From IMG/VR virus record IMGVR_UViG_3300001598_000047: 64,000 nt of DNA, one strand, 5' to 3'. The notes beneath the pieces were generated by a model. That model did not search any database and was not told the DNA's origin. It saw only the letters and a list, made by a program, of their open reading frames with translations. Below, piece by piece: positions 1 to 64,000 of the stretch (position 1 is the stretch's first letter; every line of letters starts with the position of its first letter). The position numbers and the translations under genes are program-made. Source of the DNA: an uncultured virus (IMG/VR IMGVR_UViG_3300001598_000047) (lineage: Duplodnaviria > Heunggongvirae > Uroviricota > Caudoviricetes).

Positions 1-310
1 CGCCTTTATCACCTTTATCTCCTTTATCGCCTTTTTCTCCTTTCTAGCCTTGTATTCCTTGCTAACCGTCTTTACCATCTTTACCATCCTATCCTTTAGG
101 ACCAGTTTCGCCTGTAGCACCTTTCTAGCCTTGTATTCCTTGTGGACCGGTGTCTCCTTTGTCGCCTTTGTCACCTTTATCTCCTTTTGGACCTGGTGAT
201 ATAAAATTTACAACTTTTTTTATCTAATTCATATTATCAGCCGTTACAATTCTATCCTATAAATTAACAGCATCTTTTGACTTATCATTATATGTTATCT
301 TATCATTCAT
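1..310 (-). CDS. Collagen-like (Gly-X-Y repeat) virion fibre protein, runs off window start; TAG read-through
   Basis: ATG at 310; MNDKITYNDK...ADNMN*IKKVVN then GPKGDKGDKGDKGDTGPQGIQG*KG repeats. Confidence 0.8.
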
Positions 311-658
311 ATTTTTATCTTCTATATAATATTAATTATAATTATTTATAATTTTTTAATCATGAATTAAGTAATTAAATTTTTTCATTACTTCTCTAAA
401 ATAATCACGCTTCTACAAATGTTAGTAATTCTGTAAAATAAATAAATAAAATCTATTAATCTTCGAGGATTTATTTGAGAACTACCTAAAAGAACTAGAA
501 AATTTTTCTAGAGAAACTCTGTAACACTAATTTTCAAAGTTTTCTTTGAAGTAATAATAGCAGTCAACAATCTACACTAAATGTTTATTTCTCTATTTTA
601 ATAGACGCTAAATTTACTATTTTAAAATATATTTTTATTTATTAATTTATTTAAAAAT

Positions 659-666
659 TATAAATA
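659..666 (+). promoter_or_regulatory. Putative T4-type late promoter TATAAATA
   Basis: Exact TATAAATA about 25 nt upstream of ATG 692; gp55-like sigma present in window; AT-rich background lowers specificity. Confidence 0.45.
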
Positions 667-691
667 ATATTAAAATAAAAATATAAAAATT

Positions 692-2193
692 ATGAATATT
701 TATCAAAAAGTTTATTTACAAGATTTAATTTTAGAAGAAAATATTAAGTCATTAATTCCTAATATACAAAGTTAGTTATTAACAGACATCGGTGTGTCTA
801 ATTATCAAAGTTTAACATAGCATGATAAAATATTATTTCAAGAAAAATTAAATAATATGCTTGAACATATCAAAGAAAAAGTAAGTTAGTTAACAAATAA
901 TTTACAATATCAAAGCTGGGTTTATAAAATATTAAAACAAAAAAATAAAGATATTGACGAAGATTATAATGTATTAAAAACTGCATTAATTGATTTTACT
1001 AAGTTATGTAAACGTCCAGACCTTCTACCACAACAAAAAAATATTCAAAATTATCAAACTTTCCAAGATTTACAAAAATTTATTTTAAGCTTTCAAAAAG
1101 AACATAAATTAGAAAATAATATTTATAGTAATTTAAAAAAATTATACAATAATTAGAAATATACTTGCTATTTAATTACAAATTATTAGGAGTGTAATAA
1201 ATTATTTGGTGGTCAAAAATATTTTAATACAGGCTGGTGCATTGCTAAATCAAAATATCATTTTAATAATTATTTAAATGAGTATCCAGATAAATTTAAT
1301 GGATATATTGTATTTATTGAAAATACTACAAATAAACCATACGCATTATTACATTATGGATCTAAACAATTTAAAGATACTAGTGACCAGACATTAACAA
1401 ATAATGATAAATTAATTATTGACTGTTTATATAATATTAATTCAAATATTAAAAATTATTCTATTGCAGATACTGACTTATATAATTATTTGTTTGATAT
1501 ATATTCTTATAAAAATCCTGGCAAGCTATATTTAGATTTGCTTTCATAGGTATAGTTTATAAACTATGACAAAATAAATAAAACTATAGACTTAAAAGGT
1601 AATACTTTAAGAATTAATGAAAAATTATTAAATGAAAATATTTTTAGTTATAATATAGTTAATTGTATACGTATATCATTTTAGCGATATAAAAATTTAA
1701 TAAAATTACCAGATAATTTTTATATCCCTAATTCTGTTAAAGATTGTAGTTGTATGTTTTGTGGTTGTGAAACTTTAACAAAATTACCAGATAATTTTAC
1801 TATTCCAAATTCTGTTCAAGATTGTAATTATATGTTTTATGGATGTAATAATTTAATAAAATTACCGGATAATTTTGCTATTCCAAATTCTGTTCAAAAT
1901 TGTAATAATATGTTTTATGGTTGTGCTATGTTAACAAAATTACCAGATAATTTTACTATTCCAAATTCTGTTAAAAATTGTAGTTGGATGTTTACCCGGT
2001 TGCGAAAATTTAACAAAATTACCAGATAATTTTACTATTCCAAATTCTGTTAAAAATTGTAATGACATGTTTTATTGTTGTATTAGTTTAACAAAATTAC
2101 CAGATAATTTTACTATTCCAAATTCTGTTCAAAATTATAGGAATATATTTGGGCGGTTGTACTAATTTAAAAAACTTACCAAATAATATTTAA
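692..2193 (+). CDS. Protein with C-terminal BspA/DUF285-like leucine-rich repeats; TAG read-through and two CGGT +1 sites (1997, 2154)
   Basis: Frame continuous from ATG 692 through TAGs into ORF 1754; 26-aa repeat LTKLPDNFTIPNSVxxCxxMFYGC continues after each skipped C to TAA 2191-2193. Confidence 0.8.
1695..2180 (+). repeat. About 6 tandem 78-bp coding repeats (LRR units)
   Basis: Repeated aaaattaccagataattttactattccaaattctgtt core. Confidence 0.9.
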
Positions 2194-2208
2194 TATTTTA
2201 TTTTTAAT

Positions 2209-3688
2209 TTATTTTAGCTAAATAATTACACTTCCGCAATCCTACACTAAAAAATTATTTCTCTATTTTAATAGAGGCTAAGTTTGCTATTTTAAAATAT
2301 ATTTATTTAAATCAATATTATTAAACCAGCTAAAATCTAAACTTTTATTTACTGGAATTATCTACTACTTCTTAAATATTTTAATTAATTTTTGCTTTAT
2401 CTACTATTTATTTGTAGTCCACTAATCCTACCAAATATGTATTAATCGAATATTTTTCTAATTACAAAGTTTTGTTTTCATTAAATGATAACCATGTGGC
2501 TTCTGCTATGTACTGTGCCAGTAACTTCCATTAAACTATATTGCTAAATTTAACTATTTTATGTAAATATCTACCTAATAAGGACTAATTAACTAATAAT
2601 TATTCTAATTCAACTATGGAAAATATTGCTTACAAAATTCTGCTAACTATTTCTACTAGGATGAATATCCAATATTCTAAATATATGGATGACATTTTCT
2701 ACAAATTACTGGTACTGCAACATTATTAATATATTGTCTACCGAGACATTACATGTGATTTAATAATATTTCCGCATTCAAGACATTTCCATTCTAACGT
2801 ATTATCATGATACTTATCTGTTTTAATATATGTTGCAAATGAAAATAATGGAATAATATATGGATTTTGAAACATTAAATCATAATATTTTTTTCTATAC
2901 TATGGTGTTTTACAAATATTTTCATATCCATATTTTTGTAAATTTGTATTTTTTGTTTTAATCTTATATTCATATGTTTGTGTATAATTCTAAACATTAT
3001 ATTTCTATAAATTAGTTTGTTTTATTTTCTATTTAATCTATTTTGCTGCAAATGGGTTTTCAACACCATATTTTTTTAAAAATGTTTGTTTAACTTTTTG
3101 TTTTGTCTATTTAGAATTTAATGGACAAGTTGTACCATATTTTAATAAATTTGTATTTTTTATTTTTGTTTTTATTTGCTAATTTTGTGCTGATGATTTT
3201 GTGCCATATTTCTATAAACATGTTTGCTATGCTTTATCTTTTATTATTTGTGTTTTACTTGCAATTTTATTTCCATATTTCTATAAATTAGTTTGATACA
3301 TTTTTTGTTTTACACAATCAGCTTGTACTGGATGCTAAACACCATATTTTTTTAATGTTGTTTGTACTCGTTTTTGTTGAACAGCAGGATCTAAAGCCGC
3401 ACATTTTTTTGAGCAATGACTTCCATACTTTTTTGTTATTTTTAAATTTTTAAACTAACCTATTCTTTTATTACATATTGGACATATTTTCCACTATGTA
3501 ATATTATTAATAATCCAGTTTAATTTTGTAGATAAATTATATATAGAATTTTGAAGTAAAGGTGTTTGCTAATTAATATATACTAATAATTTCTAATTTT
3601 CTTTTCTTTTTAATATTTTACAAAAATGTATTGGATATTGTTTTATAATTTCTTTTATTTGATTTTCAATCTATATATTTCTTTCCAT
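2209..3688 (-). CDS. Free-standing endonuclease 1 (Zn ribbon + KYGV repeats + Vsr/Hef-like PD-(D/E)XK domain)
   Basis: CPIC, HCSKKCA, CL*KYG repeats, PY*VDIYIK*LNLAI*FNGSYWH, RLIHIW*D*W, V*DCG; one CGGT site at 2741-2743; 1480-1 nt = 493 codons. Confidence 0.8.
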
Positions 3689-62560: not shown

Positions 62561-62944
62561 TTAAATATTAAATAAATTATTTTTATTATCTAAATTATTT
62601 TCTTGTTGATATGTATCTTTATTTTTTAAATTATTTGATTTATTTGCTTTTATATATTTAATATATGCAGTGTTTTGTTTTGGTACCAAAGAATAAACTA
62701 AATGATAAAATTGTTTATTTGATAATAATTGTTGTATACTATTTAAATATTCTGCCATATTAATAAATTTACTATTCATACTTAAATAACGACATACCAT
62801 ATATTTTGAAAAATATTTTTCAAAATCTTGACATGTATCTAAACTATTATTTGAATATTTTAATAATATATCTGTTAAACAATCAAAAAATGAATTTATA
62901 TTTTTATTTAAAATTCTTTCTTTAACAATATCATTTGATATCAT
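62561..62944 (-). CDS. Sliding-clamp loader small subunit, T4 gp62-like
   Basis: FSKYMVCRYLSM, AEYLN, QFYHLVYSLVPK, YIK; AGGAG upstream; no TAG. Confidence 0.7.
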   Translation of the reverse strand: MISNDIVKERILNKNINSFFDCLTDILLKYSNNSLDTCQDFEKYFSKYMVCRYLSMNSKFINMAEYLNSIQQLLSNKQFYHLVYSLVPKQNTAYIKYIKANKSNNLKNKDTYQQENNLDNKNNLFNI

Positions 62945-62977
62945 ATTTAGTTTCTCCTTTAATTATTAAAATAAATA

Positions 62978-63007
62978 AAAAAGGCAAAAATTAAAATTTC
63001 TGCCTTT
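62978..63007 (-). terminator. Putative terminator downstream of Hsp20
   Basis: aaaggca...tgccttt inverted repeat with T tract on the minus strand. Confidence 0.55.
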
Positions 63008-63045
63008 AAAAGATTAGTTATGTTTATTTAAATAGTATATTGAAA

Positions 63046-63567
63046 TTAATTAATATTAATTTCAATCTCATTTTGTTCATTATCTTTCTGTTCTGAAATA
63101 ATTGGTAATGCAATAGATAATACACCGTCAATAAATTGAACTAACATATTTTTTGCATCAATTCGAGGTGTTAAACTCCATGTATAACTTGCTGCTCGTT
63201 TTGCAATACCATGTGAAAGATATTTTGCATAATATTCATATTTTTCATCAGAATAATCAACATCATTTAAAGGAATTAAATCAACCTTTAATGCTTTATT
63301 CTGAATTAATTTTACTTTAACTTCCTCTTTTGAAAAACCAGCTAAAGCAACATTAATTAAATATTGTTCTGGAATATCCGTCTTTTTATTATATTTTACA
63401 ATAATATCAATAGGATATGGAAAAGATTTTTTTACACAACTATTACTAAATACAGATTCAATTTCATTTATTAAATCCTGAAATGAAGAAATAGGTGTTC
63501 CTGGAAAAATTGCCGGAAATGGATATTCAAAAAATCCATTACGATTAATAATTGAGTTTTCGTTCAT
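63046..63567 (-). CDS. Small heat-shock protein (Hsp20/IbpA-like)
   Basis: FPYPIDI, VALAGFSKEEV, YLSHGIAKRA, FIDGVLSI; no TAG. Confidence 0.9.
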   Translation of the reverse strand: MNENSIINRNGFFEYPFPAIFPGTPISSFQDLINEIESVFSNSCVKKSFPYPIDIIVKYNKKTDIPEQYLINVALAGFSKEEVKVKLIQNKALKVDLIPLNDVDYSDEKYEYYAKYLSHGIAKRAASYTWSLTPRIDAKNMLVQFIDGVLSIALPIISEQKDNEQNEIEININ

Positions 63568-63696
63568 GTTTAAATTCCTTATATTTAAGCAAATTTTATT
63601 TAGTTTTTAAGATACCTTTATATTTAAAGCATATCTTATTAACATAACTAAACTTTTTATATTATATATAATAATTCAAAAAATAATTTTCTAAAA

Positions 63697-64000
63697 TTAT
63701 TTTACTGGTTCTTCCCATCCATATTGTACTAATAATTCTCTCTAATCTTTAGCATGTTCTTCTTCATCTGCTTTTATTTCACGAATTAATTTATAAGTCG
63801 TTGTATCATTAGTACATTTTAAAAATTTTAAAAATGCATCATAATATTTAATTGCATTTAACTATTCATTATATCTATTTAATAAAATTTTTAATGAATT
63901 TGTCTATAATTCTTGTTTCCAATTTTCACCATTTGAATTTCTTGTTAACCATTCTTGTATTAAAACAGTTGGCACTGGTGAATTTAACTAACGTAAACGA
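63697..64000 (-). CDS. Ferritin/Dps-like protein, 3-prime part
   Basis: NE*LNAIKYY, DTTTYKLIREIKADEEEHAKD. Confidence 0.7.

Follow-up and report, generated by a model that had tools for sequence, protein, structure and literature searches.

The stretch of DNA analysed here, positions 1 to 64,000 of the uncultured-virus record IMGVR_UViG_3300001598_000047 (hereafter the window), is 64 kb long, has about 21% G+C and carries the gene set of a tailed phage. In this window TAG is a sense codon that is read through in 57 of 72 open reading frames (ORFs), and comparison of the encoded proteins with their homologues suggests that the phage very probably reads it as glutamate, while TAA and TGA remain stops. 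Both in evolution and in composition, the TAG sites behave like the phage's own GAA sites.

The TAG codon and its amino acid

Under the standard code (table 11) the window holds 16 ORFs of at least 150 amino acids, and reading through TAG raises this number to 54. For ORFs of at least 100 amino acids, coverage likewise increases from 0.36 under table 11 to 0.93 with TAG as sense; opening TGA instead gives 0.41. A set of 72 non-overlapping ORFs of at least 80 amino acids (18,997 codons) contains 456 in-frame TAG codons, and these ORFs terminate at TAA in 58 cases and at TGA in 14. TAG is distributed evenly along gene length, and within the last five codons it accounts for 8 of 360 positions (2.2%, versus 2.4% overall).

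Among the three ORFs 5962-6654 (-), 7899-9104 (+) and 14195-14689 (-), two have TAG as the final sense codon before TAA or TGA, and the last of the three, otherwise free of TAG, carries its sole TAG three codons from the end. At such gene ends TAG may still serve as a stop until a suppressor is present.

A sequence-only reading of the same DNA had located reassigned TAG codons at nine coordinates (2575, 2536, 2428, 2422, 51422, 51002, 50948, 19566 and 19632), and each of these carries CTA on the plus strand, that is, TAG on the coding minus strand. The peptide strings it had quoted are also present in translations with TAG written as X: PYxVD, AIxFNG and IWxDxW in the endonuclease ORF 2209-2613, with PYELD and AIEYNG in the paralogous ORF 5962-6654; VVxKY, LPxKE and TYRxIG in the sigma-70-family factor (50789-51682), together with YSYRxEM and LGxM in the gp55-type sigma factor; FNKLYxxIL (36315-37391) as the counterpart of FNILYEEIM (27381-27689); and a collagen-like GxKG beside GEKG at 5-193 (-).

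For the assignment of an amino acid, ORFs translated in this way were aligned to their homologues, and residues were tallied opposite TAG and opposite each sense codon of the same ORFs, which served as internal controls. In the homing-endonuclease family (20 homologues, 68 TAG positions), the residues found opposite TAG were E (25.5%), K (15.6%), N (8.4%) and D (7.2%). This profile resembles that of the GAA control (E 34.3, K 19.6, N 9.5 and D 8.7%) and not that of the CAA control (K 18.9, Q 17.3 and E 15.2%). The majority residue was E at 26 of the 68 positions and in no case Q.

The sigma-70-family factor, compared with 12 homologues, has E opposite TAG in 54.6% of cases and Q in 2.9%. Seven of its 12 TAG codons fall in near-invariant E columns, including those of the LPxKE motif (region 4) and of TYRxIG, which in sigma factors from the PDB align with LPERE and with TLAEIG or NLKEIG, respectively. 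In the family of the probable neck protein encoded from position 46084 (106 homologues, HMMER), TAG residues 298, 301 and 337 correspond to E in 62 of 86, 72 of 87 and 48 of 60 sequences. For the gp55-type factor, alignment with five GenBank phages places E opposite the TAG of NNxKK in all five, and D, D, D, E and D opposite that of YSYRxEM.

We pooled these four families, leaving out the Q-rich homologues P0033, P0034 and P0121 as well as P0059, which is the window's own fragment, and scored the resulting 102 TAG positions with an empirical substitution table built from 2,031 aligned sense positions. Glu was the best-fitting residue, with Gln 19.8, Asn 27.3, Asp 29.9 and Lys 37.0 nats worse; E was returned in 1000 of 1000 bootstraps, and the same classifier was correct for all 29 sense codons with at least 15 positions. 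Of the 25 columns under TAG in which a single residue makes up at least 60%, 17 are dominated by E and none by Q.

A second line of evidence comes from relatives that use the standard code. Orthologues of 32 of the 72 window ORFs are found in G001, a complete 373,444-bp IMG/VR phage genome with terminal repeats and 27% GC, and orthologues of 24 in G002, a partial 199-kb IMG/VR genome with 22.7% GC (E-value at most 1e-8, 24-69% identity); the window therefore belongs to a clade of jumbo phages. G001, G002 and the other IMG/VR loci are standard-code, with a code-11 ORF coverage of 0.67-0.97 that opening TAG hardly alters. In tblastn comparisons with loci L006-L012, TAG was paired with E in 60 of 162 cases and with Q in 12, and the controls paired GAA with E in 80 of 184 and CAA with Q in 42 of 141. 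Against whole contigs, TAG was paired with E in 58 of 191 cases in G001 and in 47 of 158 in G002 (Q in 11), the corresponding controls being 127 of 321 and 76 of 217 for GAA with E, and 54 of 200 and 45 of 156 for CAA with Q. A likelihood analysis of the G001 and G002 pairs combined (349 pairs, 221 distinct TAG codons, 26 ORFs), calibrated on 10,494 sense pairs from TAG-bearing ORFs, again ranked E best, with Q 68, K 93 and D 115 nats worse. Bootstraps at the level of ORFs gave E in 991 and Q in 9 of 1000 replicates, and 33 of 33 control codons were called correctly. GAG was enriched opposite TAG in G001 (9 of 58 versus 6 of 127) and not in G002 (0 of 47 versus 3 of 76).

Proteome composition points in the same direction. 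Glu makes up 6.9% and 6.7% of residues in the two relatives, and Gln 3.0% and 3.7%. In the window, GAA and GAG together account for 4.6% of codons, or 7.0% once TAG is included, while adding TAG to Gln would raise the latter from 2.7% to 5.1%. Within the window, TAG-free ORFs contain 6.6% Glu and 2.9% Gln, and TAG-bearing ORFs 4.1% Glu, 2.7% Gln and 3.0% TAG. TAG thus represents 42% (456 of 1,086) of the Glu-type codons of TAG-bearing genes, and in ORF 2209-2613, with 18 TAG codons and neither GAA nor GAG, it represents 100%.

Taken with the DNA of a recoded relative described below, these comparisons bear out the proposal of the sequence-only reading that TAG would stand for glutamate and not glutamine: E is the best residue in every sizeable calibrated dataset, composition agrees, and a check of the TAG columns for alignment mainly with Gln found no Q majority among either the endonuclease positions or the conserved columns.

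Other readings of the TAG codon

Several observations weigh against glutamate, which is itself deduced from comparison. In the glycosyltransferase family (45 bacterial-type homologues), whose 25 TAG codons lie mostly in variable columns, K is found opposite TAG at 22.6%, E at 13.3% and N at 9.0%; the sole conserved column under TAG in this family is E in 8 of 8. Calls for individual ORFs are noisy, so that of the 15 ORFs with at least eight TAG pairs eight favour E and seven another residue (H in two; N, Q, K, S and M in one each), and the per-gene frequencies of TAG and Glu show no significant correlation (rho -0.10, p 0.39). A homology-free profile of neighbouring residues correlates with that of K at 0.59, of Q at 0.55 and of E at 0.38. 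Pure E is outperformed by a site mixture of E and Q (E fraction 0.77, interval 0.65-0.88). Of the decoding machinery the window gives no evidence: no tRNA, Rfam match, synthetase or release factor was found in it. Finally, according to the portion of Borges et al. (10.1101/2021.08.26.457843) that we compared, amber suppressors of E. coli tend to be glutaminylated, and a Glu-accepting tRNA with a CUA anticodon would accordingly need special features.

The mixture fit would be expected if decoding were ambiguous, with Glu as the usual reading of TAG and Gln or some other residue as a minor one, through a suppressor that is partly amidated or charged by two synthetases. Many bacteria form Gln-tRNA by way of Glu-tRNA(Gln), a route that lends this reading some plausibility; overall we consider it improbable. 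Mixtures of E with I, M, L or V gain 19-25 nats, compared with 10.2 for Q, and the improvement is therefore better ascribed to misaligned or heterogeneous sites than to a Gln component. In addition, under a TAG = Glu code a C-to-T change in CAG would turn Gln sites into TAG and would account for some of the Q partners without ambiguous decoding.

That TAG stands for glutamine (NCBI table 15), as in Lak, crAss-like and other recoded gut phages, is in our view quite unlikely, even though Gln is the sole TAG reassignment reported for phages in those parts of the literature that we compared. Gln is also the second-best residue in both likelihood tests, it is present at TAG positions in the two closest database homologues of the neck protein (P0033 and P0034), and its neighbour-context correlation exceeds that of Glu. 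Against this stand the deficits of 19.8 and 68 nats relative to E, the lack of any Q majority among the 68 endonuclease positions and the 25 conserved columns, and a combined Gln and TAG content of 5.1% where standard-code relatives have 3.0-3.7% Gln. The Q-bearing homologues themselves, with 0.5-3.1% E and with Q in the most conserved Glu columns of the family, are best read as code-15 mistranslations.

We give still less credence to another residue such as Lys, Asp or Asn, or to a non-canonical amino acid such as pyrrolysine. Opposite TAG, Lys ranks first in the glycosyltransferase family and second, after Glu, in the endonuclease family, and it has the best neighbour-context correlation. 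However, Lys is twice as common as Glu in the proteome, which inflates raw K counts, and the GAA control yields the identical partner order E>K>N>D. In the two likelihood tests Lys trails E by 37 and 93 nats, and Asp by 30 and 115. A Pfam scan of the window found no pyl-type gene. The idea that TAG is not reassigned at all, and that its occurrences stem from mistakes in sequencing or assembly or from nonsense mutation during genome decay, can draw on a few damaged-looking genes (an Hsp70 gene lies in three frames) and has a negligible chance of being right, given 456 in-frame TAG codons in ORFs that extend up to 1,330 codons without TAA or TGA at 21% GC, where decay should produce TAA first, orthologue alignments that continue straight across the TAG codons, an even distribution along genes, and the same pattern in an independent contig from another sample (L044).

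Recoded relatives, decoding and gene content

The contig L044, a 2,416-bp JGI metagenome sequence with 43% GC, bears an orthologue of the probable neck gene in which 436 codons include 39 TAG, two GAA and one GAG. Its TAG codons lie opposite Glu encoded by GAA or GAG in the window at more than ten positions, and opposite TAG of the window at nine. Against standard-code members of the family, E is the top partner of L044 TAG and occupies four of four conserved columns. The adjacent N-terminus of the family-B DNA polymerase (PolB) reads TKLxF...WIxSHK in L044 and TKLEF...WIEAHK in the window. Judged from its DNA, at least one other relative thus displays the pattern expected of TAG = Glu. L044 favours G-ending codons (AAG 28, AAA 6), and AT pressure is therefore not the explanation for the rise of TAG there; as the sole driver of TAG it is ruled out, since this contig uses TAG even more at 43% GC.

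P0033 and P0034, the two closest database homologues of the neck protein, derive from short run-assembly contigs and contain 3.1% and 0.5% E, and 11.7% and 12.8% Q, respectively. They carry Q opposite L044 TAG (at 15 and 21 positions) and opposite genuine Glu codons of the window (at 10 each), where P0035 and P0036 have E. Because E is so scarce and Q occupies the most conserved Glu columns of the family, both would appear to be TAG = Glu genes that were translated with a TAG = Gln table. The closest homologue of the sigma-70-family factor, P0021 (39% identity), has Q at seven columns where ten other homologues have E, with 5.3% E and 6.3% Q overall, and may be another, partly recoded TAG = Glu relative translated as Gln. 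The trait is shared with at least one, and probably with three, further relatives.

We built a quick maximum-likelihood tree of a single gene, the neck gene, from an alignment in which every E, Q and X was masked. It placed the window together with L044, P0033 and the standard-code G001 in one group with a Shimodaira-Hasegawa-like approximate likelihood ratio (SH-aLRT) of 100, and P0034 fell outside this group and inside the next clade (99). On this topology the trait must have changed at least twice. Profile scans with the neck-gene and primase alignments recovered only standard-code phages among large relatives (G001, G002 and L065-L067), the recoded one being the short L044, and no relative emerged when IMG/VR and JGI metagenomes were scanned with PolB peptides.

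The tRNA that decodes TAG would lie elsewhere. In the window, ARAGORN predicted no tRNA, Rfam gave no match at the gathering threshold, and a Pfam scan found no synthetase or release-factor domain. Of the standard-code relatives, G001 has 36 tRNAs, including a tRNA-Glu(UUC) at L025, 11016-11091, and none with a CUA anticodon, and the partial G002 has two; neither encodes a GluRS- or GlnRS-type synthetase (glutamyl- or glutaminyl-tRNA synthetase) or a class-I release factor, in searches whose positive controls worked. The loci L006-L008, L010-L012 and L065-L067 gave no ARAGORN prediction, and L009 gave tRNAs for Asp and Lys alone. In G001 the program also reported a tRNA of unknown type with the four-base anticodon 'gtag' (L025, 13108-13179), which may be a tRNA-Tyr with an odd loop, because no other tRNA-Tyr is listed for that genome. 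We suppose that TAG is decoded by an amber suppressor tRNA (CUA) carrying glutamate, most likely phage-encoded and situated outside the 64-kb window. The most economical model is a phage suppressor of glutamate identity that is charged by the host GluRS and that may derive from the tRNA-Glu(UUC) of the clade; alternatively, as the sequence-only reading had also suggested, a tRNA-Gln-like suppressor might receive Glu from a non-discriminating GluRS and escape amidation.

TAG is absent from 15 of the 72 ORFs. Given the TAG rate of TAG-bearing genes, the probability of such absence ranges from 5e-8 to 0.02, with values of 5e-8 for PolB, 1.5e-6 for ClpX, 5e-6 for the M16 peptidase and 2.6e-5 for the primase; further TAG-free genes encode a thymidylate-kinase-like protein, RmlC, a HAD hydrolase, a clamp-loader-like protein and Hsp20. 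TAG is present in the genes for both sigma factors, for the probable neck protein and for the large tail-fibre-like proteins, as well as in those for glycosyltransferases and all endonuclease paralogues. This division suggests that the code could act as a temporal gate. An unmodified standard-code host would be able to translate the TAG-free genes for replication, chaperones and proteases, and the sigma factors (including the gp55-type late factor), virion genes, glycosyltransferases and homing endonucleases would yield product only after the suppressor is present.

On balance we lean towards a wider scenario, in which a clade of gut jumbo phages made TAG a Glu codon that became dominant in some members (39 of 42 Glu-type codons in the L044 virion gene) and that was gained or lost more than once. 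A Glu-accepting amber suppressor tRNA would have escaped GlnRS and would gate both sigma factors and hence the late programme, and public annotation pipelines would mistranslate such genes with code 15; in metaproteomics the 0.984 Da that separates Gln from Glu would then look like deamidation.

The main features of the window are collected in Table 1.

Table 1. Features of the 64-kb window and their TAG content
Feature	Position	Strand	Remarks
Jumbo-phage region, TAG sense	1..64000		456 in-frame TAG in 57/72 ORFs; TAA ends 58, TGA 14
Collagen-like Gly-X-Y run, truncated by window start	5..193	-	GxKG beside GEKG and GDKG
Homing endonuclease paralogue 1, two ORFs	2209..3688	-	DUF7487 repeats and REase domain; 35 TAG
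Homing endonuclease paralogue 2	5962..6654	-	9 TAG
Nearly TAG-free block	13624..18030	-	Coiled-coil protein, SbcD-like nuclease pieces, ClpX, M16 peptidase; sole TAG of the block in 14195-14689
T4 gp55-like late sigma factor, two frames	19323..19914	-	16 TAG
Sugar-modification island, ten genes	27734..36280	-	Nucleotidyltransferase/kinase, HAD, three DUF4422 and several other glycosyltransferases; 54 TAG in 9/10 ORFs
Homing endonuclease paralogue 3, two ORFs	39134..40427	-	25 TAG; immediately downstream of PolB
Family-B DNA polymerase (PolB) ORF	40420..42096	-	558 codons, TAG 0
Probable neck/head-completion protein	46084..47364	+	15 TAG; weak fold match to T4 gp13/gp14 neck and phage 812 stopper
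DNA primase	49536..50591	+	351 codons, TAG 0
Sigma-70-family factor	50789..51682	-	12 TAG
Large Asn/Ile-rich proteins, presumably tail-fibre-like	52977..62511	-	Role from size and composition; 75 TAG in seven ORFs
Clamp-loader-like protein and Hsp20	62561..63567	-	TAG 0

The family-B DNA polymerase is 30-32% identical to enzymes of T4-like cyanophages. Its ORF matches over its full length a 609-amino-acid ORF in G001, which indicates that PolB is short across the clade, and the rest of the polymerase may be a separate gene. The window also encodes a primase, a clamp-loader-like protein, SbcD-like nuclease pieces, ClpX, an M16 peptidase, Hsp70 pieces and Hsp20, alongside the gp55-type late sigma factor, the sigma-70-family factor, homing-endonuclease paralogues, the glycosyltransferase island and very large Asn/Ile-rich proteins, for which no family match was found. 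The homing endonucleases form one family (DUF7487 repeats with an MTES_1575-type nuclease) at four minus-strand loci, the three in Table 1 and 18901-19287; all four are TAG-heavy and two are split into overlapping ORF pairs. Genes of the sugar-modification island have no orthologues in G001 or G002 except for one weak match to the HAD gene, and they seem to have been imported and yet adapted to the phage code.

A neck role for the protein encoded from position 46084 is suggested by an AlphaFold model (mean predicted local distance difference test score 72), for which the best Foldseek matches were the T4 portal-neck-tail complex and T4 gp13/gp14, with probabilities of 1.00 and 0.97 and weak E-values of 2.6e-3 and 0.1. 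A distant member of the family has a weak PHROG match to 'head closure', and a comparison of the family with PDB sequences gave no match. Neck-gene orthologues in G002 (L009, 9953-11142) and in contig L050 (1745-2954) lie in three or four pieces in differing frames, and frame breaks are therefore common in assemblies of this AT-rich clade.

The gp55-type gene is split over two frames offset by +1. The split occurs at the equal place in the standard-code G001 (L022, 19300-20000, and L023, 1-600), where the upstream frame terminates at TGA and residue conservation in the downstream frame starts about ten codons ahead of a conserved ATG. As it is common to the window and to an independent genome, the split is not an assembly error, which leaves a programmed +1 frameshift or a split gene as the explanation. 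A DnaK-like Hsp70 gene (4363-5788, minus strand) is distributed over three frames, with pieces at 5309-5788, 4647-5231 and 4363-4605 and one TAG near its start. Its orthologue in G002 is matched in a single frame (L037, 1430 to 60), and the window copy looks broken or affected by indel errors. The protein encoded at 692-2029 (+), which is 50% identical to a G002 protein, ends in C-terminal DUF285 repeats, whose family description names a Mycoplasma protein of unknown function; it might be informative about which hosts the clade infects.

Comparison with known recoded systems

A phage code in which TAG means glutamate would be a new form of the known phage stop-codon recoding. The sequence-only reading had taken such a code to be undescribed in phages, in agreement with Borges et al. 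(10.1101/2021.08.26.457843), whose compared sections report phage-host code mismatches only of the TAG-to-Gln and TGA-to-Trp types, explained by the susceptibility of GlnRS and TrpRS (tryptophanyl-tRNA synthetase). Likewise, TAG recoding is treated as TAG = Gln in the compared parts of four other papers (PMC13037316, PMC11210395, PMC9523058 (Peters et al. 2022) and PMC10879173), and no phage in which TAG or UAG stands for Glu turned up in a search of open-licence PubMed Central (PMC) papers and bioRxiv main texts. Crisci et al. 2021 (PMC8346664), in the sections compared, describe some TAG codons aligned with E in Lak terminases, conclude that the residue is Gln, and leave three clades unresolved.

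If correct, the assignment shows a second route to phage recoding beside the charging of amber suppressors by GlnRS, and it indicates a natural Glu-accepting CUA tRNA, which would be relevant to the rules of tRNA identity and to genetic-code engineering. Code-15 gene callers would place Gln at 456 Glu sites in these 64 kb, altering charge, predicted structures and homology scores, and proteomic databases built in this way could pass Glu off as deamidated Gln. With standard-code and TAG = Glu members interleaved, and TAG making up from about 40% to about 93% of Glu codons, the clade would be a good system for studies of viral code change.

The window shares much with code-15 phages (Lak, crAss-like and other gut clades). 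Its source is a large phage of the gut type, many of whose genes contain in-frame TAG and whose stops are TAA and TGA; replication genes are TAG-free and virion and regulatory genes TAG-rich; and recoded and standard-code members are interleaved in one clade. For code-15 and code-4 phages, the compared sections of Borges et al. (10.1101/2021.08.26.457843) interpret the pattern of recoding across gene classes, which the window matches, as regulation of late and lytic genes. The window differs from code-15 phages in that its TAG sites are Glu sites and not Gln sites, and neither the suppressor tRNA nor the release factor 2 (RF2) gene of such phages is seen within its 64 kb.

Glutamate has been assigned to UAG in nuclear codes, presumably via a Glu-accepting tRNA with a stop-reading anticodon, as we suppose here. 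In NCBI table 30 (peritrich ciliates) TAG and TAA are both read as E; in Blastocrithidia UAR is Glu and UGA is Trp, and in an uncultured ciliate UAA is Lys and UAG is Glu, according to the compared parts of PMC12153298 and of PMC11687900 (in the latter as a cited result). These nuclear codes reassign UAA as well, whereas TAA is the main stop of the window, ending 58 of 72 ORFs. We know of no NCBI table that reads TAG alone as Glu. The nuclear codes are also those of cellular genomes in which the whole translation system has changed, whereas here the code is presumably forced by a virus on a bacterium with the standard code, and some of the viral genes stay code-neutral. Unlike any of them, the window carries the genes of a tailed phage, including a gp55-type late sigma factor, a T4-type PolB and primase and a neck protein, and its relatives are viral contigs of 199-373 kb.

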